A DNA stretch of 43,372 bases from Escherichia phage ZCEC5: sequence record NC_073321.1; one strand, 5' to 3'. The notes beneath the pieces are model-generated. The model was not told the DNA's origin and did no database searches. It saw nothing but the letters and a program-made list of their open reading frames with translations. Within the stretch, counting starts at the first letter, position 1. Every line of letters starts with the position of its first letter. Position numbers and translations under genes: made by a program. This document shows, one piece after another, positions 2,437-41,923 of the stretch.

Positions 2437-2633
2437 GCGAAAAACTATTGTTACGTATGCTGCATACGCTTCTTGACGACAACGGGCAGGTGATATTCCA
2501 GTTTACCGGGCGCTACGACCTCCTAATCGATGTCTCTGATGGAACATTTGCTATTGGCGTCGAGTTTGTAGAAAGGGGTGATGCGTTCCAGTATCTAAGT
2601 GATAATTACGACGTACTGGAAGATATTTGCTGA
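2433..2633 (+). CDS. Hypothetical small protein (66 aa)
   Basis: ORF track; ATGA overlap. Confidence 0.5.
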   Translation: MSEKLLLRMLHTLLDDNGQVIFQFTGRYDLLIDVSDGTFAIGVEFVERGDAFQYLSDNYDVLEDIC

Positions 2634-2748
2634 TGAAACTGTTAATCATCCCTAACGCCTGGACTATAGCCGTAGCTAACGACCATTACGGCGGCGATGG
2701 TAAAAGAGCACCACGACACCGTTTATACAACTGATTGGAGAGTGAAAA

Positions 2749-2898
2749 ATGGTTGAATTCGATGATGTTTCATTTGAGGAGCCCATAGACCGGGTTGTTT
2801 TAATAGTGTATTGGGGCTTTTACTCAAAAGCATTCGAAGGCGACACGAAAGCAGATTGCATAAATCAATTACTGCAATGGGTCACAAGCCGAAAATAA
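2749..2898 (+). CDS. Hypothetical small protein (49 aa)
   Basis: Strong RBS GGAGAG upstream of ATG; followed by terminator. Confidence 0.35.
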   Translation: MVEFDDVSFEEPIDRVVLIVYWGFYSKAFEGDTKADCINQLLQWVTSRK

Positions 2899-2906
2899 CA
2901 ACACCA

Positions 2907-2932
2907 AAAGCCCTCCGTAGAGGGCTTTTCTG
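2907..2932 (+). terminator. Intrinsic terminator ending the small-gene array
   Basis: Hairpin AAAGCCCTC-CGTA-GAGGGCTTT followed by TTCTGT. Confidence 0.55.
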
Positions 2933-2960
2933 TACATCCCGCCCAATCCCCTTATATAAT
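2931..2960 (+). promoter_or_regulatory. Candidate promoter upstream of terminase genes
   Basis: Perfect -10 TATAAT at 2955-2960; weak -35 TGTACA 18 bp upstream. Confidence 0.35.
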
Positions 2961-3025
2961 CCCTTTAGACGCGTAGGGCGCGTCTGATGCGCTCTGATGG
3001 TCAGACGCATATGCAAGGGGATTCT

Positions 3026-3535
3026 ATGAAGCTGAAACTTAAGCAGCCATCGCCAGAGGTGGTGCAAGCTGCACATGAAGAAGCTGTTAGTGCAAACCGT
3101 CGCCGTAAACGACCGCGCGGTAAACAGAGCCTTTATCAATCATCCCGTAATTCCGCTGCGTTGTGGGACCCGGACTATTGCGACGCGTTAATCGAGTTCT
3201 TCGACCGCACGTCATGGGAGCTTGTGCCAACGTCTAAGGGTGATGAACGCCCGCTGATTCAGGATAAACCGCCATCGCTCGCCCGCTTTGCCCTACACAT
3301 CGGCGTCACTATCCCGATTATCAAGCTGTGGCTGCGTGAGATACCCGCGTTTGCAGAAGCCTATGAAACAGCACAGGCGCTGGAAGAGGCGTATTTCACT
3401 GAGACAGGGGCCGCGGGTATCTCCGCTACGTTCGCTGCCGCTAAGCTGGGGCTGAATAAAACTGTTGCCACTGAAGAAGTACGCGACGAGCCAATCAGTG
3501 AAGTAACAATTAAGGTGGTGTCCGGTGAACGTTAA
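3026..3535 (+). CDS. Terminase small subunit (putative)
   Basis: Position immediately upstream of and overlapping terminase large subunit; basic N-terminal region; RBS AAGGGGA before ATG 3026 (ORF-track frame 2987..3535). Confidence 0.6.
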   Translation: MKLKLKQPSPEVVQAAHEEAVSANRRRKRPRGKQSLYQSSRNSAALWDPDYCDALIEFFDRTSWELVPTSKGDERPLIQDKPPSLARFALHIGVTIPIIKLWLREIPAFAEAYETAQALEEAYFTETGAAGISATFAAAKLGLNKTVATEEVRDEPISEVTIKVVSGER

Positions 3536-8316: not shown

Positions 8317-8342
8317 ACATACCTCCTGTCTAAGTTAACTGA

Positions 8343-8371
8343 ATAGTAGCCTATTATGCTGGGGTGCGCAA
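8343..8371 (-). promoter_or_regulatory. Class B promoter TTGCGC-17-TACTAT containing palindrome AATAGGCTACTATT
   Basis: Near-identical copies at 16926-16954 (-), 39509-39537 (+) and 40677-40705 (+). Confidence 0.5.
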
Positions 8372-8423
8372 ACTGTTTATTTACGTATTCCAGTTATTCC
8401 ACAGAATTGCAAATGTTGGAATA

Positions 8424-16910: not shown

Positions 16911-16925
16911 TGTTGGTGTGAGTGA

Positions 16926-16954
16926 ATAGTACCCTATTATATTGGGGTGCGCAA
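16926..16954 (-). promoter_or_regulatory. Class B promoter TTGCGC-17-TACTAT driving the Imm/metallophosphoesterase island
   Basis: Shares 30/33 positions with the promoter at 8339-8371. Confidence 0.5.
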
Positions 16955-17019
16955 GTAATGTGATAGAATAATTTTGCGCCTAGTGTCGCACACGAAAAGC
17001 GGGTGGTTCCCGTCTGGCG

Positions 17020-26428: not shown

Positions 26429-26613
26429 TCGAACTCCACCAAACCGTCGTTAAAGAACTCAGCGATTATGTAGCCCGAGTCATCGTCGTAATCGGCGACT
26501 ATCTCACCAGCGTCTTCTAAAATTACGCGATACTCAATGCCGTTATAATAAGCCTGATATTCTTCACCTTCTTCGAACTCGGGTACGTTCGAACTAACGC
26601 AAAACAGTTTCAT
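26425..26613 (-). CDS. Hypothetical acidic protein (62 aa)
   Basis: ORF track; ATGA-coupled to SNF2 helicase. Confidence 0.45.
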   Translation of the reverse strand: MKLFCVSSNVPEFEEGEEYQAYYNGIEYRVILEDAGEIVADYDDDSGYIIAEFFNDGLVEFE

Positions 26614-28034
26614 TTCTTACCTCGTCTCTTCATGTAATTGAGCAATTCTTCCTGTACCGATTTCTTCTCGTCTGTACGCGCGGCAACAACCTCGTCCAGC
26701 GTGTCTTTAGCAACAATGTGATAGAGGAACACTGGGCGCTCATGCCCCGCCTGTTTCTGGCGGACCGGGCCTATACGCTCAACAACCTGCAAATAGTGCT
26801 CAAGGTTCCATCCTTGCGAGATGAACGCCAGATGATGTCCGCCGTCCTGTAAATTCAAACCATGCCCGGCTGACGCAGGGTGCACGCATAAGATTTCGAT
26901 TTCGCCACGGTTCCACGCTTCCATCTGCTTATTACCCTTAGCACCTTTTGCAAACGCCTGTGCCTGCGGGAATCGCTTAAGGATACGCTCCAGTTCGTGC
27001 TTGAACTGATAAGCCACCAGCAACGGCGCTCCCTGTAACTCCTCGACAATGGACTCCAGCGCATCCAGTTTCGTATCGTGCACTTTCTCCCAGTCTTTCG
27101 TTGCTTCGCCATCAGGCCCCGACACATACACGGCACCGGAGGCAATCTGCAAACACTTTGACGTCTTCGCCGCGGCGTTAGCAGCTTCAACTTCTCCGCT
27201 CTCCAGTTCTGCGAATAGCTTCTCCTCCATATCTATGTACGCCTGGCGCGCTTTCTTCGGCAGGTCGATCTCAACCGGTACAATAATCGGCGCTTCGCAA
27301 CCGAACCACTCGGCAGCGTCAATCGTGAGACTAATGTCCTTCATCTTCTGGTGAATCTCGTTATCTGCTCCCGGGCGCGCATGATACTCACGGGCCATCG
27401 CCGACTTACCTTTCTGTACCGAGTTAAACCATCGGTCGGTGAATGCTGTGTATGAGGACCCCAGGCGCTCGCCCGCGTCGATAAACCAGTTCTGCCCCCA
27501 CAAATCCTTGAGGCCGTTTGGCGATGGCGTACCAGTAAGGTTTATCAACCTCTTAACATTTCTGAATGCTACTTTACTAAGCGCCTTAGCCCGCTTGCTC
27601 CCCCCGGAACGGCTACGGAATGATTTCAATTTCGTGCTTTCATCATTAACTATCACGGTAAAAGGCCAGTCGTCTACGCCGTAATAGTCGATAAGCCACT
27701 CTATTACCTCGTAGTTGATGCAAATCACATTGGCGTCTGACTCCAGCGCAGCTATGCGGCGCTTCTCTGAACCGGTGGCATCTACGACACTCAGGCATGG
27801 GAAATTCCACTTAGTTTGTTCTGCGGGCCACGTACCGGACGCAACACGTAAAGGAGCCAGAATTAACACGCGGTCGTCATCATTAAGTTGCCCATTACGG
27901 AACAGCCGGTTTAACGCCCACAAGACGCTGCCTGTTTTTCCTGCGCCCATGCTCGCCCAAATATTACAGCGCGGATGTTGCAACATGAACGAAGTCATGA
28001 GCTTCTGGTACTCGCGCCTTTGAAACTTACTCAT
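26610..28034 (-). CDS. SNF2-family (DExx-box) helicase
   Basis: Walker A SMGAGKTG near N-terminus, DESTK motif II, C-terminal helicase domain. Confidence 0.75.
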   Translation of the reverse strand: MSKFQRREYQKLMTSFMLQHPRCNIWASMGAGKTGSVLWALNRLFRNGQLNDDDRVLILAPLRVASGTWPAEQTKWNFPCLSVVDATGSEKRRIAALESDANVICINYEVIEWLIDYYGVDDWPFTVIVNDESTKLKSFRSRSGGSKRAKALSKVAFRNVKRLINLTGTPSPNGLKDLWGQNWFIDAGERLGSSYTAFTDRWFNSVQKGKSAMAREYHARPGADNEIHQKMKDISLTIDAAEWFGCEAPIIVPVEIDLPKKARQAYIDMEEKLFAELESGEVEAANAAAKTSKCLQIASGAVYVSGPDGEATKDWEKVHDTKLDALESIVEELQGAPLLVAYQFKHELERILKRFPQAQAFAKGAKGNKQMEAWNRGEIEILCVHPASAGHGLNLQDGGHHLAFISQGWNLEHYLQVVERIGPVRQKQAGHERPVFLYHIVAKDTLDEVVAARTDEKKSVQEELLNYMKRRGKK

Positions 28035-28062: not shown

Positions 28063-28950
28063 TTAAGCGGCTACTTGCGGGACGATGGCATTGCCATAAC
28101 CGCGCAATCGTCCCACTCTGGCGGGTATCCCATTAGCCAGCGGGAATGTGCCGGGTTCAACTGGCCGGAATTTTCCATCCCGGCAGCCGAGCCAGTCAGC
28201 ATCTGACCAGAAGCCGTTATGCGTATTGGCTCCACGAGGTAGCATTGATTGTGAAGATTGTTCGGGTCTCTTTTTGTTTCCGCCTCGCTGTAACTTCCGT
28301 GACGCGAATTCTGAACCGTCGGTGTCCCCCATGCCGCTTTCAGCCCCTGTTCCGTTGAGTAGTCCAGTCTGTCGAATGTTCTGTCCTTCCCATCCTTGCG
28401 AATCACTGTCTCCCCGCTCCCTTTGTAATCGTTCGCTGTCGGTGTCGGCCAATTCGTGCGCACCAAAGAAGAGTCGTTCTCTTTTGTGCGGAGCGCCGAC
28501 GCTACAAGCTGGGAGTACGGCAAACCCGACGGCGTAGTCTTCTCCTTCCAGGTGAGCTTGTAAATCGCACATCCACGATTTTGCAATTGCTGGTGCAACC
28601 TGTTCCCCAAAGAGGACTGGAGGGCGGCACTCGCTGATGAGGTCGAGGAAAACTGGCGCAAGGTGTCTCGGGTCGAACTGTCCGAGTTGTTTTCCTGCCG
28701 CGCTAAACGGTTGGCAAGGCGGGCTTCCCGTCCAGAGAGGCGTATCTTCCGAAACTCCCGCAAGTCTGAGCGCGAGAGGCCAGCCGCCGATACCAGCGAA
28801 AAAATGACACTGGGTGAACCCGTCGAGGTCTTCTGGCTTAACTTCGGTAATGCTTCTTTCATCTACAACTCCAAAAGGTATGTGGCCCTGTTTTATTAAT
28901 TCACGCAGCCACGCGGCTGCGCCTTTATCCCATTCGTTGTAATAGTTCAT
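28063..28950 (-). CDS. DNA (cytosine-5)-methyltransferase, orphan
   Basis: Motif I FAGIGG, motif IV SPPCQPFS, ENV-like GEQV, HKRER, C-terminal GNAIVPQVA; no adjacent restriction enzyme. Confidence 0.8.
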   Translation of the reverse strand: MNYYNEWDKGAAAWLRELIKQGHIPFGVVDERSITEVKPEDLDGFTQCHFFAGIGGWPLALRLAGVSEDTPLWTGSPPCQPFSAAGKQLGQFDPRHLAPVFLDLISECRPPVLFGEQVAPAIAKSWMCDLQAHLEGEDYAVGFAVLPACSVGAPHKRERLFFGAHELADTDSERLQRERGDSDSQGWEGQNIRQTGLLNGTGAESGMGDTDGSEFASRKLQRGGNKKRPEQSSQSMLPRGANTHNGFWSDADWLGCRDGKFRPVEPGTFPLANGIPARVGRLRGYGNAIVPQVAA

Positions 28951-29477: not shown

Positions 29478-29936
29478 CTATTCTCTCGCCGCGCAGACCA
29501 CTTTGTACGCTTCCTCCTTTGTCGAAAAAGCACCGAGATATATGCGCTTCCCGTTCACGGTTATCCTTGCCCTAAATTTACCTCTTTCAGGCGATACCCC
29601 CTTTAAACATGAGGTGTTGTCGCGCCTTACCCTTGCGTTTCTGGTATTCTCCCACCTGGTCGCTAACCGCAGGTTGCAAATCCGATTATCCGCACGGTCG
29701 CCGTTTATATGGTCAACCTCCTCCGGCGGCATATCACCGTACACCCACCACCAAGCCAATCGGTGTGCCGGATAGTGGACGTTTCTGAACACAACTTTCA
29801 TATATCCAAGGTCAGTGTAGTTATTTATAACTTTCCCCGGAACAGACCGCGGGCCACTTCGCTTAACCCATTTGAATACCCCAGTATCAGGGTCGTACGA
29901 CAGAAAATCTTTTATATCGCCACTTGGTGCTTTCAT
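29478..29936 (-). CDS. HNH homing endonuclease with AP2-like DNA-binding domain
   Basis: DHINGDRADNRICNLR HNH motif; C-terminal AP2-like segment; N-terminal YDPDTGVFKW shared with two paralogs. Confidence 0.7.
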   Translation of the reverse strand: MKAPSGDIKDFLSYDPDTGVFKWVKRSGPRSVPGKVINNYTDLGYMKVVFRNVHYPAHRLAWWWVYGDMPPEEVDHINGDRADNRICNLRLATRWENTRNARVRRDNTSCLKGVSPERGKFRARITVNGKRIYLGAFSTKEEAYKVVCAARE

Positions 29937-30018
29937 AATACACACCCCTCACGTTTCGTGTGTTCAATCCCGCAGCGCGGACAGATTCGACAATCTTCTT
30001 CATAAAACCAGTAAATTT

Positions 30019-32397: not shown

Positions 32398-33024
32398 TTA
32401 ACGGCGGCGACGTTCGCGGCGTGGTGCTTCGTCTTCTTCGTTGTCTTCAAGGTCATCGACGCTCGCAGCAACTTTAGAACCCCCGAACGCTTTACCTTCA
32501 CCAACGTATTTAATCGCCAGCAGGTTAACACCGAGGACTTTATATTTCTGGCTAAACCAGATTTCGACGCTTACGTTAGCTACGCAGCCGCTGTAAACCT
32601 GTTCGCCTTCGATCTGTTCACCGTCTACATTGAAGTCCTGTTCTACCTGAGTCTCACCTTTTTTAGAGGTTACAATCAGTGGCTGTTTCTGCGCTTTCGC
32701 TTTGAAGTAGAAGCCTTCCGGGAAGTCTTCAAACGGATTGTCGCGCTCGGCAATGTCTTTAATCGCGCATTTATCCATGTGCTTACCTTCGCCGTAGTTG
32801 GACTTCATCCACTTCTCGGCGGCGGCTGCGCCTAACGCTTCTTCAATTACAGCGTAAACGGTGTCATAGAGCGCATCGATTTGAGCATGGTCAGACGGCA
32901 GGATAATAGTAGCGCTGTACTGACCTTTAGTGATTGAGCCATCGTCGTTTTCACGGTCTTTTTCGCGTTCGAATACGTTAACCCAGGCAGTGTTTACTTT
33001 ACGCAGATTTAATTTCAGTCCCAT
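32398..33024 (-). CDS. DUF2815-like protein (putative phage ssDNA-binding protein)
   Basis: Highly acidic/basic C-terminal tail, position between DUF2800 nuclease and polymerase as in PolA-type phage replication modules. Confidence 0.55.
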   Translation of the reverse strand: MGLKLNLRKVNTAWVNVFEREKDRENDDGSITKGQYSATIILPSDHAQIDALYDTVYAVIEEALGAAAAEKWMKSNYGEGKHMDKCAIKDIAERDNPFEDFPEGFYFKAKAQKQPLIVTSKKGETQVEQDFNVDGEQIEGEQVYSGCVANVSVEIWFSQKYKVLGVNLLAIKYVGEGKAFGGSKVAASVDDLEDNEEDEAPRRERRRR

Positions 33025-33111: not shown

Positions 33112-33300
33112 ATAAAATTTTGCAATAGGGATTATGTTCTCGAAATTAAGCATATTGGCCGGTTCGAACTCATCCTCTACAGGGTCGTATCGCATCATGG
33201 TACCGTTCAAGAACGTGAACGATTCCGAGTGTAGATACCCATCCCAGCGCCATACCATCAAAAAATCTTTATCAGTCGGCATTTCATTTACTTGAATCAT
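33097..33300 (-). CDS. Hypothetical protein (67 aa)
   Basis: ATG 33300 overlaps DUF2800 stop (ATGA) and is preceded by GAGGAGGA. Confidence 0.45.
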   Translation of the reverse strand: MIQVNEMPTDKDFLMVWRWDGYLHSESFTFLNGTMMRYDPVEDEFEPANMLNFENIIPIAKFYLTHE

Positions 33301-34538
33301 TCTAAATCCTCCTCTGTAACTTGATTCCACTCAGGACGTGTGTCATCCGCCGTTGCGACGCATGGCGCACCGGGCTTACGGGTAATGAAGTCTTTCAGTT
33401 CTTCTTCCGGTACAATTTTAACCGCTTCGGTCGGTGTCATAAGAACTACCTTTTGCAGCATAGTACCGTACTTCTCGAATACTGCGTCGGTATCTTTCCA
33501 CGCACGATTACCGGGGCGACCTTCAACCAGTTTGTATCCTGGCACTTTCTTACCTGAATGCAAAGCAGCAGCCATCGCTTTCTCAACCTTGTCGATGTGC
33601 TGGCGCAACAACGGCAGCTTCTCATACTCAGCGACGAGTTGCTCTGGCGTAAGTTCCAGCGCACAGTCGTCCTCAAGTTCTTCCGCCAGTACCGCGTTAA
33701 CGGTTTTTGTACGAGCTGCGCACTGTTCCGAGAAACGACACCACTGACAACCATCTACCGACGGCTTGAAGTCCGACGCTTTAAGGTTCTTCTTGCCGCG
33801 GTTATAGGCATCAAGTGCTAACAGTGCACGTTTCTGTGCGAACTTAGCGAACAGTTCCAGACCTTCAACCGAGATGTCCCACTCCGACGCGCCACCAGCG
33901 TACGGCTGAAAGATGACCAGACGAACGGTTGTTATGTTATAACGTCTCTTGAGTCGGCGATAAACACCGAGAGCGTAAAGCATAAGCTGCTTGTTTTCTT
34001 TCGCTTCGACACGATGTCGTCCTGTTTTCAGGTCGCCAATAATGAGCATGTACTCGTCGGTGTTAGCCAGTTCCTGAACGGCAACAAGGTCGGCGGTTCC
34101 GAAGGTTTCAACGCCTTCGTAACCTGGGTGCAATACCTCAGTAAGGTTAACGCGCATCTCGAGCTTGGCGTAAGTAGCTACATCGATAATCGGTTTGCAG
34201 TAGTCTGTGTACTTGCGCACCTGCTCAATCATATCCGCCGTAATCAGTACCGCGCCTTTCATCGGGCTGATTAGCGCCTTAATCTGACCTTTACCCTCAT
34301 CCAGCACGTAAGCGCCGACTTCACGCTCTAACGGCAACGCAGTGCCTTTTATATACTGGTTTAGATGGACCTCAGCTATAGTGTGACATGCGGTTCCTGT
34401 AACTGCGGATTTACCAGACGTGTTAGGAATATCTTTTTCACAGGCCAGTGATGCAGCGCATGACAGCCACTTTTTAGCCCCGGACGGCGACAGTAAAGCG
34501 TGTACGTCGTTATTGCCACCGCGTTCTTTTAGAATCAT
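33297..34538 (-). CDS. DUF2800-like PD-(D/E)xK nuclease with C-terminal Cys cluster (Cas4/RecB-like)
   Basis: N-terminal LLSPSGAKKWLSC, catalytic-type GDLKTG, C-terminal CQWCRFSEQC. Confidence 0.7.
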   Translation of the reverse strand: MILKERGGNNDVHALLSPSGAKKWLSCAASLACEKDIPNTSGKSAVTGTACHTIAEVHLNQYIKGTALPLEREVGAYVLDEGKGQIKALISPMKGAVLITADMIEQVRKYTDYCKPIIDVATYAKLEMRVNLTEVLHPGYEGVETFGTADLVAVQELANTDEYMLIIGDLKTGRHRVEAKENKQLMLYALGVYRRLKRRYNITTVRLVIFQPYAGGASEWDISVEGLELFAKFAQKRALLALDAYNRGKKNLKASDFKPSVDGCQWCRFSEQCAARTKTVNAVLAEELEDDCALELTPEQLVAEYEKLPLLRQHIDKVEKAMAAALHSGKKVPGYKLVEGRPGNRAWKDTDAVFEKYGTMLQKVVLMTPTEAVKIVPEEELKDFITRKPGAPCVATADDTRPEWNQVTEEDLE

Positions 34539-35032
34539 TTCTCGTCTCCGTTAACTGTAAAGCCGTATTTAATTTCGGCTTGCCTACGAGCCTTAGCTGC
34601 GTTCTCTAATTTATCGTAAGCCCCTAAATAAATCGGCGTACCGTCTACATAAATTCTTGCAACCCACTTACCGCAGCGTTTATGAAACCCAACACCTTTA
34701 ACCCCTGAAGTATTGTCAGCCCGTACGCTGGTGCCGTGTGCGATGCTACCTCGACGCATTTTTATAAGATTTTCTATCCTGTTATCAGTTCTATCTTTAT
34801 TTTCGTGACGAATTACTTCCCCCGGCGCTATCGGCCCGTTAAACATCTCCCAAACAACGTGGTGGATAAGTTTAGTAGCACCGTTAAAACGCAGTATTTT
34901 AAATTCACTCCCATCGTTATCCACCCTCGTACTGCCGGCTTCCTGTCCTATTTTTACAGATTTTGACGGGCTTATTTTCCAAAACAATTTACCTGTATCA
35001 CGGTCGTAGTCAAAAACTTCACGCCAATTCAT
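34535..35032 (-). CDS. HNH-AP2 homing endonuclease paralog (degenerate HNH motif)
   Basis: N-terminal FDYDRDTGKLFWK; HNH region reads IRHENKDRTDNRIENL; C-terminal AP2-like YLGAYDKLENAAKARR; ATG 35032 overlaps upstream stop. Confidence 0.6.
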   Translation of the reverse strand: MNWREVFDYDRDTGKLFWKISPSKSVKIGQEAGSTRVDNDGSEFKILRFNGATKLIHHVVWEMFNGPIAPGEVIRHENKDRTDNRIENLIKMRRGSIAHGTSVRADNTSGVKGVGFHKRCGKWVARIYVDGTPIYLGAYDKLENAAKARRQAEIKYGFTVNGDEK

Positions 35033-35301
35033 GCCAAAGTCTCCCACTGGTCAATTAAATGTCGTGTCTGGTGATGGCAATGCATGGCCCACCCGTACAT
35101 CGACTCGAAGACATAAAAGTCAGGTTTGGCGAAAGTCGTGCGCTTAATCTGCGACACGTGACGGCCTATATCTTTAGGCCGTGGTACTTTGCCTAAGTAC
35201 GCCATCTCTTCCATCTGGTGCGCACCGGACGGCGCACGCAACAGCCACAACGCCTCTGTGTTATCCCGCCTGTCAACGGCGCGGTAGAGTTGGTAAACCA
35301 T
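35029..35301 (-). CDS. Hypothetical protein (90 aa)
   Basis: RBS GAGGG; His-rich segment HCHHQTRH. Confidence 0.45.
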   Translation of the reverse strand: MVYQLYRAVDRRDNTEALWLLRAPSGAHQMEEMAYLGKVPRPKDIGRHVSQIKRTTFAKPDFYVFESMYGWAMHCHHQTRHLIDQWETLA

Positions 35302-38537: not shown

Positions 38538-38771
38538 TTATTCCAGGTCTTCTAAAGTAGCGGTCATTCCGCGAACTTCAGCAACAGCACTATATTTCCC
38601 GCCAACATTTTTCACGACACCAGATTTAACCAGCACTTTCAACGACCCTTCAATAATGGCTGAACTATAGTACTTAAAATAACTACGGCGCAAGTCGATA
38701 ACGCTGCACGACCCTTTTTTACGTGTTAACGAAACTACCGCCGTAAATACGCGTGACTGGAACTCGGTCAT
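38538..38771 (-). CDS. Hypothetical protein (77 aa) with C-terminal TLEDLE tail
   Basis: ATGA-coupled; C-terminus resembles those of the primase and DUF2800 proteins. Confidence 0.45.
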   Translation of the reverse strand: MTEFQSRVFTAVVSLTRKKGSCSVIDLRRSYFKYYSSAIIEGSLKVLVKSGVVKNVGGKYSAVAEVRGMTATLEDLE

Positions 38772-38938
38772 TTAACGTTCTCCTTAATCCACGCTTCCAC
38801 TTTCTCCGGGTCAAACGTACCAGGCTGCCGGCGGCCCATAATGCGGATACAACAATCTGGGAACTTCCCGCTCTTTAACCAGTTATTCAGTGTGCGACGA
38901 GTAACCCCGATACGCTCGGCTACCTCATTCTGCGTCAT
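38768..38938 (-). CDS. Small HTH DNA-binding protein (AlpA/excisionase-like)
   Basis: MTQNEVAERIGVTRRTLNNWLKSGKFP; ATG 38938 with RBS AAGGAG (ORF-track frame 38768..39016). Confidence 0.5.
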   Translation of the reverse strand: MTQNEVAERIGVTRRTLNNWLKSGKFPDCCIRIMGRRQPGTFDPEKVEAWIKENVK

Positions 38939-39077
38939 CTTTAATCTCCTTAATTGTTTCCCATGCGAACGCTGTAGCTGTGCCGTATTTATTAGGGCAG
39001 TATCTGCTCTCGCCATGTCCGTTAAACCACGCTTCTATCAGCAACTCTTTCAACTGTTCTTCTGTCAAAGTAACCAT
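38925..39077 (-). CDS. Hypothetical small protein (50 aa), first gene of leftward early operon
   Basis: ATG 39077 with RBS GAGGG; the ORF-track TTG start at 39110 overlaps the -10 hexamer. Confidence 0.4.
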   Translation of the reverse strand: MVTLTEEQLKELLIEAWFNGHGESRYCPNKYGTATAFAWETIKEIKDDAE

Positions 39078-39188: not shown

Positions 39189-39443
39189 ATATCTTAGTTA
39201 CTTTGATTCCTGTTCACCTTGTAAGAATGTTTAACCCGTGCGTCAAGCAAAGGGTTAAACACAGGCTTACTGAACATAAGAATTATAGTAACTTTCCTTC
39301 CTTAGTATCTCCAGTTGCCATGGGCAAGCTCTATTCTCATCGGCAGCATATCTCTTAAGTATCTGATTTTCTTAATGTGCCGTAGATTCGCAACCGTAAA
39401 AATGTAACGATTATTGGGCAGGCTTAAGGCCTGCCCTTTAGTT
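39189..39443 (+). ncRNA. Candidate ~250-nt noncoding RNA in the divergent control region
   Basis: No ORF; contains 9-bp perfect inverted repeat GTTTAACCC-N14-GGGTTAAAC (39229-39260); ends at an intrinsic terminator. Confidence 0.2.
39416..39443 (+). terminator. Intrinsic terminator in noncoding region
   Basis: GGGCAGGC-TTAAG-GCCTGCCC followed by TTTAGTT. Confidence 0.5.
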
Positions 39444-39508
39444 ACCAAGTAATAAGAATAAAGGCACAACCTTCCCTAAAGAATCACAACGGCAACGTAA
39501 CTAATCCC

Positions 39509-39537
39509 TTGCACACCCCAACATAATAGGATACTAT
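39509..39537 (+). promoter_or_regulatory. Class B promoter TTGCAC-17-TACTAT with palindrome AATAGGATACTATT
   Basis: CTTGCACACCCCAACATAATAGGATACTATTCA, near-identical to the 8339 and 16923 promoters. Confidence 0.55.
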
Positions 39538-39571
39538 TCACTTATCGAAACGAGACAGAGGAGTGAGAGTT

Positions 39572-40381: not shown

Positions 40382-40404
40382 TTTGGGATTTTACTGAGTG
40401 ACTT

Positions 40405-40440
40405 ACGCTGCTACACAGCAGCGTATCATTTTTCTCATTT
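40405..40440 (+). terminator. Intrinsic terminator
   Basis: ACGCTGCT-ACAC-AGCAGCGT followed by ATCATTTTTCTCATTTTT. Confidence 0.6.
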
Positions 40441-40495: not shown

Positions 40496-40669
40496 ATGAT
40501 TACTAAAGAACAGGCCGAACAACTAATCACGTTAATTGACACGATGGTTGATATAAAAACCGATTTAGCAACGGCAACAGAGGAATCCGCTACCTGGTCG
40601 CTTGAAGAAAGAGAAGCAGAAGCGGAGCGCGAGCTGATGGCGTTCATCGGTTCTATAACACACCAATAA
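40496..40669 (+). CDS. Hypothetical acidic small protein (57 aa)
   Basis: RBS AGGAG. Confidence 0.4.
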   Translation: MITKEQAEQLITLIDTMVDIKTDLATATEESATWSLEEREAEAERELMAFIGSITHQ

Positions 40670-40676
40670 AATTTAC

Positions 40677-40705
40677 TTGCACACTAAGATAGAATAGGCT
40701 ACTAT
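40677..40705 (+). promoter_or_regulatory. Class B promoter TTGCAC-17-TACTAT with palindrome AATAGGCTACTATT
   Basis: Palindrome identical to the reverse complement of the 8342-8355 copy. Confidence 0.55.
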
Positions 40706-40736
40706 TCATTTACACAAACGAGAGGAGAGACAGAAG

Positions 40737-40856
40737 ATGTATAAGTATCTGACGGTAGAACAACTGGAACAGATTTACGCTGAGTTGCGAGTTTGTTGCG
40801 TATGCACCGGCGACTACAAACTTGTTTACGGCGAACTGGAGGCGGAAGATGAGTGA
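40737..40856 (+). CDS. Hypothetical small Cys-containing protein (39 aa)
   Basis: RBS GAGGAGAG; CCVC motif. Confidence 0.35.
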   Translation: MYKYLTVEQLEQIYAELRVCCVCTGDYKLVYGELEAEDE

Positions 40857-41538
40857 CAAAAACGAAGTATTCGAGTACCTGATTGACTGCATACGGCATC
40901 AGGTAAACAACAACCCGTACAAGCAACAGTGCGAAGACCTGGCGCGTGAGGTGCAGTCACTTAAAAACCAGTTACGTGATGCTTCGGCGCAGATTAAGGA
41001 GCTACACGTGGCGCTGGTCAAAGCTACGGGTGACGCGGGGGCGTACAAACTTGCGCGCAAGGGTGGGTACATTTCTGATGGTCAGCGCTACGTAGTAGGT
41101 GGACACGGGCCTGAGCCATCAGGTTGCCGTAAGGAAGATACGCAGGCCGGGGAATCGTGGGCTGAGTGCGACGGTTACGGCGCGTGCCCAGTACCGGACG
41201 ATACTGTTGTTGATATTAAGTTCCGAAGCGGTGAAGTGGAAAGTAATACCAAAGCGATGTGGTGGAGTTGGGGCACAACGGGAGGGCTATACGATATTGT
41301 TGCGTACCGTGTCGTCAAGCGACAATGTCACAAGGAAGATACCCGGGAATGCGAGCAATCCGGTTGCTGTAAAGAAGATACTCACGAGTGCCACCATAAC
41401 TGGCGATTCGTTAATGGTAAGGCTCCTGTCGTATGTATTAATTGCGGCGTGACTAAATCCAGCGGGTGTGAACACGAATGGCAATTTTACGGAGTCGGGT
41501 TTCCATGTATGTGCATTAAATGCGGGTTAAAGAAATGA
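40849..41538 (+). CDS. Cys-rich protein with three C-x-KEDT repeats (229 aa)
   Basis: GCRKEDTQAGE / QCHKEDTRECE / GCCKEDTHECH repeats plus C-terminal CINCG...CMCIKCG. Confidence 0.55.
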   Translation: MSDKNEVFEYLIDCIRHQVNNNPYKQQCEDLAREVQSLKNQLRDASAQIKELHVALVKATGDAGAYKLARKGGYISDGQRYVVGGHGPEPSGCRKEDTQAGESWAECDGYGACPVPDDTVVDIKFRSGEVESNTKAMWWSWGTTGGLYDIVAYRVVKRQCHKEDTRECEQSGCCKEDTHECHHNWRFVNGKAPVVCINCGVTKSSGCEHEWQFYGVGFPCMCIKCGLKK

Positions 41539-41738
41539 CCAGCATCTTATTTATCTGGGTACTGTCCGCAGGTCAGATGCACCTGGCGGCATCAGAAACG
41601 TTTTATTCTATGGAGGCGTGCCAGTCAGCGGCACGCGCCGCGGAGAACGCGCACTTCCTGTTTCAGGGCGACAAGCCCAACGATTCAGAGGTACGCGCTA
41701 TCTGCTCACCTAAGCGACTTGGCAATCAGGAGAAGTGA
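41535..41738 (+). CDS. Small secreted protein (67 aa) with predicted signal peptide
   Basis: MTSILFIWVLSAGQMHLAASE N-terminus; two Cys in mature part; ATGA-coupled. Confidence 0.45.
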   Translation: MTSILFIWVLSAGQMHLAASETFYSMEACQSAARAAENAHFLFQGDKPNDSEVRAICSPKRLGNQEK

Positions 41739-41923
41739 TTATGGTGCAGAGATATACCTACGACCAGATATTCGGGTTTACTCCCGATGTTGAGGGCGTG
41801 TTAGTGCTTTACGAAGATTACGCGAAACTCGAAGCTGAGTTACAGAAATACAAAGACCAGTTCCCGGATTACGTCGAGTGCGCGAACTGTGGGTCAGTTA
41901 CGCATGTGGAAGGGGTGGAGTGA
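41735..41923 (+). CDS. Hypothetical protein (62 aa)
   Basis: ATGA-coupled; C-terminal CANCGS. Confidence 0.45.
   Translation: MIMVQRYTYDQIFGFTPDVEGVLVLYEDYAKLEAELQKYKDQFPDYVECANCGSVTHVEGVE

Follow-up and report, generated by a model that had tools for sequence, protein, structure and literature searches.

The gp67 product of Escherichia phage ZCEC5 is a mosaic accessory protein built from modules, predicted zinc ribbons among them, in which the triplicated C-x-KEDT motif is a generic joint ahead of each C-terminal module and not a metal or redox module. Its notable features are cassettes bounded by a connector, an extreme count of architectures among its relatives and an unmodelled beta-domain. 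In the proposed organization, an N-terminal helical, probably coiled-coil stalk would carry, as beads on a string, a variable series of small, independently folding modules, which in ZCEC5 would comprise one beta-domain (WIEW) and two CxH...CxxC zinc ribbons. A conserved, charged and flexible connector of consensus EQSGCRKEDTQ(EC) would join these modules, and the "triplicated module" of the first-pass annotation would then correspond to three copies of this connector, one placed before the beta-domain cassette, one after it and the third directly beside the second. The protein would be a non-essential accessory of Guernseyvirinae siphophages, and its family would diversify through the gain, loss and exchange of cassettes, with junctions concentrating at connectors and with target variability driving module turnover. 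We consider the connector and cassette anatomy of gp67 likely to be correct; the explanation taken as a whole, which combines a connector-joined cassette protein with a binding role, is held with moderate confidence.

The window analyzed here is the complete genome of phage ZCEC5 (43,372 nt; Kagunavirus, Guernseyvirinae), which outside gp67 shares 88-91% identity with Kagunavirus siphophages of the Guernseyvirinae. The gp67 family was sampled as 156 proteins, including 35 further loci from IMG/VR, and these sequences follow a common design: their N-terminus (MSNKNEVFEYLIDQLRQQ) and helical core are conserved, helical inserts may be added, and a connector leads into a variable string of small modules. 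The minimal form (129-137 aa), which is also the commonest (26 proteins), comprises stalk, connector and two zinc ribbons, termed here Za and Zb. The order of parts in gp67 (stalk, connector, beta-domain, connector, connector, Za, Zb) is unique among the 156 members. The parts map to the window as follows.

40849-41538, plus strand: gp67 coding sequence, 229 aa, PHROG 6094 family
40849-41064, plus strand: N-terminal helical/coiled-coil stalk (aa 1-72), conserved family core, pN/pS 0.08
41113-41145, plus strand: connector 1 (EPSGCRKEDTQ), KEDT at 41131-41142, within the linker at aa 73-99 (pLDDT <50)
41146-41325, plus strand: WIEW beta-domain cassette (aa 100-159: SWAECDGYGACPVPDDTVVDIKFR...WWSW...YDIVAYRVV), confident AlphaFold2 fold
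41326-41388, plus strand: linker 2, two back-to-back connectors (CHKEDTREC-EQSGCCKEDTHE), KEDT at 41332-41343 and 41371-41382
41389-41448, plus strand: predicted zinc ribbon Za (C181-x-H183 ... C196-x2-C199-G), beta-hairpin in AlphaFold2, invariant alignment columns
41467-41526, plus strand: predicted zinc ribbon Zb (C207-x-H209 ... C222-x2-C225-G), from ligand conservation

An AlphaFold2 model of gp67, built with a 44-sequence alignment, places helices at residues 3-20, 23-60 and 63-70 (pLDDT 82-94), the beta-domain at residues 100-159 (block means of 63-90, mostly 75-90) and two small beta-hairpin units at residues 181-229 (63-80). Pfam returned only coiled-coil noise for the stalk, which is modeled as helical, is probably a coiled coil and would oligomerize. 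The two segments with pLDDT below 50, spanning residues 73-99 and 160-180 (linker 2), together hold all three KEDT copies; low pLDDT alone is no proof of disorder, and this placement fits flexible linkers rather than a folded metal site.

The window contains exactly three matches to the pattern TGYNNNAARGARGAYAC (C-x-K-E-D-T), which start at 41125, 41326 and 41365, all of them on the plus strand within the gp67 ORF, against 0.01 in shuffled sequences, which confirms the triplication initially described for this protein. The repeats had also been said to be visible in the nucleotides, and positions 41113-41144 and 41353-41384 are indeed 84% identical over 32 nt. No inverted junction copies were found on the minus strand of the window, ruling out a shufflon or DNA-inversion system. 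Across the family, 152 of the 156 members contain the connector core K[EDNG]D[TAV], with KEDT (64), KEDA (33) and KEDV (25) as variants, and K-[ED]-D is nearly invariant even though the flanking modules are unrelated. A single connector is carried by 100 of the 156 proteins, two by 40 and three by nine, and four were scored in three members using the loose pattern K[EDNG]D[TAV]. The module following the connector is a CxHxW zinc-ribbon unit in 151 instances, a beta-domain in 28, a WPYxFYYV module in seven and an LPVCxC module in three. It is because of what follows the connector across the 156 members that C-x-KEDT is read as a joint, and the three copies in gp67 follow from the number of cassettes in the ZCEC5 allele. 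Among primary connectors, 133 of 147 have a cysteine two residues before the lysine; among secondary connectors the figure is just 12 of 41, with R or K taking its place. The 90% conservation of this cysteine in primary connectors exceeds the needs of a passive linker, and the connector may therefore have a further role.

Motif-based classification with hand-written regular expressions distinguished 90 architectures among the 156 proteins, zinc-ribbon units being classed by motif and single-linkage clustering having merged most types. Breakpoints, defined as the internal ends of homology blocks in an all-against-all blastn comparison of 37 gene sequences, were evaluated for their proximity to connectors. 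In these comparisons of 37 related genes, which are not phylogenetically independent, 29% of homology-block ends fell within 30 nt of a connector, against 15% at random positions, and the corresponding value for unique breakpoints per gene was 27.1%, against 15.6 +/- 1.3% (maximum 20%) in 1000 randomizations. The gp67 connectors are also islands of DNA homology, with 13 and 16 of 36 relatives aligning at 41119-41148 and 41359-41388, and only 1-7 of 36 aligning over the beta-domain and ribbon stretches. Both observations would be expected if the connector were conserved mainly as DNA, as an in-frame recombination adaptor for the exchange of cassettes between co-infecting phages, and the 84% identity of the intragenic copies, together with the PD-(D/E)XK (DUF2800) nuclease and Enc34-type ssDNA-binding protein encoded by the phage, is in keeping with such a role. 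Nucleotide divergence (Nei-Gojobori), however, points to a different cause. Synonymous divergence in the connector is nearly saturated (pS 0.57) and lies above that of the adjacent stalk core (pS 0.29, pN 0.025), and the connector pN of 0.084 and pN/pS of 0.15 carry a downward bias in pN, with pS unaffected, since the connector was anchored by a regular expression. Third codon positions in the connector vary freely, with AAA and AAG used 50:50 and ACT, ACG, ACC and GCG all occurring, which argues that the peptide, and not the DNA, is under selection. Furthermore, homologous recombination works poorly on stretches of 30-40 nt that are around 80% identical. A DNA-level signal was hence rejected as the main cause of connector conservation given its pS relative to the stalk, and the adaptor reading is considered improbable. 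The clustering of junctions is probably due to the survival of in-frame, folded linker recombinants, to which the short shared connector sequence may add some help.

Individual alleles differ in their C-terminal modules. The gp67 gene and its counterpart in phage DUEC01 part ways after approximately nt 204 and end in different modules, which makes their global alignment uninformative for insertion. In locus L031, a truncated family gene (2483-2830) is fused in frame to the last ~16 codons of the gene for the 67-aa protein encoded downstream of gp67 (...EVRAICSPKRLGKQEK), and in locus L035 a family gene (2501-3115) is fused in frame to the tail of the 60-aa protein encoded farther downstream (...CGSVTHVEGVE). 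Both are natural deletions that removed modules plus neighboring genes, and the existence of alleles that are fused or lack C-terminal modules (L031, L035, L016 and L021) shows that modules can be lost. The adjacent connectors of ZCEC5, which follow each other without an intervening module (CHKEDTREC-EQSGCCKEDTHEC) in this phage alone among the 156 members, look like a recombination scar or an empty cassette slot. A 5-nt microhomology, GAGCA, is common to "...GAATGC GAGCA" (the E-C-E-H ribbon start) and "GAGCAATCC" (E-Q-S), and a deletion across it could have produced the empty slot.

Selection on the connector peptide might also reflect a short linear motif for a partner, such as a docking site, a protease site releasing the modules or a degron. 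A pN/pS of 0.15 despite a predicted lack of structure, and the near invariance of K-[ED]-D next to unrelated modules, are both compatible with this possibility, but no partner or protease is known, the motif is usually present in a single copy and its conservation may be inherited from an ancestral connector-Za unit. We regard the linear motif as an unlikely explanation, and give similarly little credence to its corollary that extra copies supply added avidity or cleavage sites.

The reading of C-x-KEDT as a joint leaves the metal site to be placed elsewhere in the protein. The 229 residues of gp67 include 16 cysteines, and the CxxC-like pairs previously noted at its C-terminus are real: C196-x2-C199 and C222-x2-C225 each have a C-x-H partner farther upstream, C181/H183 for the first pair and C207/H209 for the second. 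In 96 Za units, the four ligands are conserved in 95 (C), 96 (H), 96 (C) and 95 (C) cases, and in 104 Zb units in 104 (C), 104 (H), 102 (C) and 103 (C) cases. The four conserved ligands in two knuckles that characterize a zinc ribbon are thus found in both Za and Zb, at 99-100%. None of the curated zinc-ribbon models matched the gp67 ribbons above threshold, with DUF7117 as the only hit (E 4.5), and sister modules in the family yielded weak matches to Zn_Ribbon_TF and DUF5817 (E 0.004-0.01) that lie below curated cut-offs (17.1 bits against a cut-off of 29 for Zn_Ribbon_TF). From ligand conservation, any zinc binding is predicted for the two C-terminal ribbons and not for the triplicated motif, and Za and Zb would bind two zinc ions per monomer. 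The metal is assigned to the ribbons because their ligands are almost always kept, whereas the connector cysteine is retained in just 12 of 41 secondary connectors. The latter observation also bears on the proposal that C-x-KEDT is itself a repeated metal or redox module, gp67 being a Cys-rich metalloprotein dependent on its three motif cysteines. Such a proposal finds backing in the overall cysteine content, in the further cysteines near each gp67 motif and in the retention of the cysteine before the lysine in primary connectors (133 of 147). Yet the cysteine invariance expected of a metal or redox repeat is not seen in secondary connectors, the threonine is frequently replaced by Ala or Val, and the motif occurs as a single copy in 100 of the 156 members. 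In place of the folded site expected of such a repeat, all copies lie in segments with pLDDT <50, in what is an AlphaFold2 prediction only, and the four fully conserved ligands per ribbon already explain metal binding. The proposal is therefore very unlikely to be correct: a metal role, as first suggested, is plausible for the protein, but not via C-x-KEDT, and nothing in the evidence speaks for redox activity.

The gp67 gene forms part of an operon of small hypothetical genes that is transcribed rightward and precedes the lysis cassette. This rightward block is flanked on one side by a divergent regulatory region and on the other by a holin-endolysin cassette (in synteny with phage Bas75), and the features surrounding gp67 are listed below.

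38768-39016, minus strand: HTH regulator, part of the divergent regulatory region
40676-40723, plus strand: predicted sigma-70-like promoter element (TTGCAC, 17-nt spacer, TACTAT, then TCA), the "class B promoter" of the first-pass annotation
8340-8372 (minus strand), 16923-16955 (minus strand), 39508-39540 (plus strand) and 40676-40708 (plus strand): copies of CTTGCAC-N17-TACTATTCA
40737-40856, plus strand: 39-aa ORF with only weak PHROG matches, its stop overlapping the gp67 start (ATGAGTGA)
41535-41738, plus strand: 67-aa downstream ORF with a hydrophobic, signal-peptide-like N-terminus, PHROG 3766, its start overlapping the gp67 stop (ATGA)

The 229-aa product matches "hypothetical protein QCF76_gp67 [Escherichia phage ZCEC5]" with 100% identity. 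Its ATG start codon at 40849 is preceded by a GGAGG Shine-Dalgarno sequence at 40838-40842, with a spacing of 6 nt. Searches identified 984 homologues (E <= 0.001) that keep the same frame; the best 120 of these 984 range in length from 128 to 276 aa, and many are encoded on contigs of 41-48 kb. Over three segments of the gp67 family, pN/pS values range from 0.08 to 0.24. On this comparative sequence evidence, gp67 is a real gene under purifying selection, and the translation of the ORF assumed at the outset is well supported by the frame-keeping homologues, by pN/pS values well below 1 and by the good Shine-Dalgarno sequence. The idea that the ORF is non-functional and its repeats non-coding or due to chance, for which nothing was found in favor, was dropped as practically untenable in view of these homologues, of pN/pS values far below 1, of the Shine-Dalgarno sequence and of the three motif copies against 0.01 expected. 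As previously reported, gp67 is followed by a small protein, the 67-aa product, whose N-terminus resembles a signal peptide, and the ATGA overlap between the two genes suggests translational coupling. The 60-aa ORF located beyond it (41741-41923, plus strand; PHROG 29624) has a single CxxC knuckle (CANCG) at its end and presents weak, sub-threshold similarity to Lar-type restriction-alleviation zinc ribbons (Pfam E 0.087; PHROG 3592 E 0.043).

The promoter-like element upstream of gp67 recurs elsewhere in the window. The 48 nt at 40676-40723 are a direct repeat of 39508-39555, and CTTGCAC-N17-TACTATTCA occurs four times in the window, against 0.01 expected. The CTTGCAC-N17 element is found in 35 of 37 related loci, usually as two copies upstream of the family gene. 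The claim that a class B promoter drives gp67 is therefore upheld as regards a conserved promoter-like element upstream of the gene, but needs qualification as regards the gene directly served, since the 39-aa ORF intervenes and gp67 comes second; gp67 would be transcribed from the sigma-70-like element at 40676. The two promoter-like elements on the plus strand are preceded, at a distance of some 70-250 nt, by terminator-like GC-rich hairpins followed by T runs (39416-39436 and 40404-40425, plus strand), an arrangement suggesting that the rightward block is divided into several short transcription units. Immediately before the element at 40676, a 57-aa ORF (40496-40669, plus strand) matches Pfam DUF7438 (E 2.8e-12) and PHROG 653. 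The minus-strand copies at 8340 and 16923 are directed toward ORFs of that strand, within a structural region that is otherwise encoded on the plus strand, and have a moron-like look. Elsewhere in the genome, the replication block contains two paralogous genes with HNH_3 and AP2 domains, of the homing-endonuclease type (34535-35047 and 29478-29945, both minus strand). Early-region genes, all on the minus strand (33297-34538, 32398-33024, 28063-28950 and 26610-28034), encode a DUF2800/PD-(D/E)XK nuclease, an Enc34-type ssDNA-binding protein, a C-5 cytosine DNA methylase and an SNF2-family helicase.

The beta-domain cassette of gp67 represents an all-beta domain of ~55-60 aa that is common in phages and prophages, with the signature W-I-E-W-x-G-G-E-C-P-V ... 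V-D-V-x-F-R-D-G ... W-x-W-x-H ... D-I-I/V-A-Y-R. Membership was assigned with a looser signature, W-x-E/W-x-G-G-x-C-P-V ... V-x-V-x-F-R-x-G ... W-x-W ... D-I-V/I-A-Y-R, and alignment, phmmer and Foldseek indicate that residues 100-159 of gp67 present both the WIEW signature and the matching predicted fold. A phmmer search with residues 95-160 alone against 1.84 billion cluster representatives recovered 427 clusters (50% identity) at E <= 0.001, with values down to 1e-22, and a profile search with the domain recovered 1139 proteins, the 120 listed among them being all unnamed or annotated as "hypothetical protein". Using tblastn, the domain was located in 138 phage records, the hosts of which include Klebsiella, Escherichia, Pseudomonas, Burkholderia, Aeromonas, Rhizobium and others. 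Foldseek comparison with BFVD yielded TM values of 0.7-0.88, with non-self matches at E 1.6e-5 and weaker (TM 0.7-0.8). Outside gp67, the domain appears in stand-alone form (56-60 aa), in tandem arrays of 2-7 and, occasionally, fused to PF19905 (DUF6378), PF18909 (dATP/dGTP diphosphohydrolase N-terminal), PF11753 (DUF3310, SaV-like) or PF26207. In contrast to these solitary, arrayed or fused forms, WIEW domains located between KEDT connectors are found only in the Guernseyvirinae family of gp67. This domain of more than 1000 phage and prophage proteins is flagged here, as it is modeled in neither Pfam nor NCBIfam and comparison with the PDB revealed no related structure.

An oligomer-prone stalk, flexible connectors, small exchanged non-enzymatic modules and an accessory-gene context are the grounds on which gp67 is tentatively proposed to be a multivalent binder or adaptor that targets macromolecules of the host or the phage and serves host takeover or counter-defense. 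A more speculative version of this proposal envisages a combinatorial, "plug-and-play" platform in which an oligomeric stalk would display interchangeable zinc-ribbon and WIEW binders, reassorted at connectors and tracking host immunity; that each binder might be specific to a different host factor, such as an anti-phage defense sensor or effector, is a detail of comparable uncertainty. If true, such a platform would be to polyvalent or polymorphic conflict proteins a miniature equivalent devoid of enzymatic domains, and would provide a first function for the widespread, unmodelled WIEW domain. If the cassette anatomy is right, the family offers an unusually clean natural case of intragenic cassette shuffling, with 90 motif-defined architectures in 156 alleles of one phage subfamily and with the joints marked, and hence a tractable system to study the diversification of accessory proteins and the binding targets of their modules. 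In terms of annotation, a "Cys-rich repeat protein" is replaced by a specific domain map, and the expected metal site is corrected.

The first-pass annotation could not assign the repeat to a recognized family, and database searches bear this out. The sole match of gp67 is PHROG 6094 (E 2.3e-45, 154.9 bits, over two stretches comprising residues 1-102 and the C-terminus), which has no assigned function. Sequence, profile and fold searches of Pfam, NCBIfam, PADLOC and the PDB with the whole protein and its modules returned only coiled-coil or sub-threshold zinc-ribbon noise, the one PADLOC defense model involved being LmuB, whose match (E 0.027) covers the coiled coil. The literature searched on ZCEC5, Guernseyvirinae/Jerseyvirinae, Kagunavirus and intragenic mosaicism contained nothing on the gp67 family, and the description of Kagunavirus phenotypes in the BASEL paper does not include the gp67 gene (PMC11990801).

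Comparison with known systems places gp67 close to several of them and apart from each. The 142-position profile of PHROG 6094 corresponds to the minimal stalk-connector-Za-Zb form, but misses the cassette structure, the connector and the inserted beta-domain, which matches other PHROGs instead (9174, 26870 and 16943). Like zinc ribbons of the TFIIB type and Lar-like phage ribbons, the gp67 ribbons combine a first knuckle, here C-x-H, with a C-x-x-C-G knuckle 8-30 residues away; unlike them, the first knuckle is CxH and not CxxC, and the Pfam matches fall below cut-offs. The polyvalent proteins of phages and conjugative elements, reportedly described by Iyer, Burroughs and Aravind in 2017, resemble gp67 in having many small shuffled domains, zinc ribbons included, and in being tied to biological conflict. 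They differ in being very large and dominated by enzymatic domains, whereas the relatives of gp67 span 99-276 aa and contain no recognizable enzymatic domain.

The "His boxes" of T-even tail-fiber adhesins, attributed to Tetart et al. in 1998, are said to be conserved motifs that bound variable segments. As with the connector, these short conserved motifs flank unrelated segments and mark sites of duplication and exchange. The concentration of breakpoints at the motif that is expected of a His-box-type system was found for the connector as well (27.1% against 15.6 +/- 1.3%, in non-independent comparisons), while conservation of the DNA beyond coding need was not, connector pS (0.57) being higher than that of the stalk (0.29). 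The T-even adhesins are virion receptor-binding proteins, and their His-box motifs reportedly exert part of their effect as DNA; gp67, by contrast, is a cytoplasmic accessory protein in which the connector is kept as a peptide.
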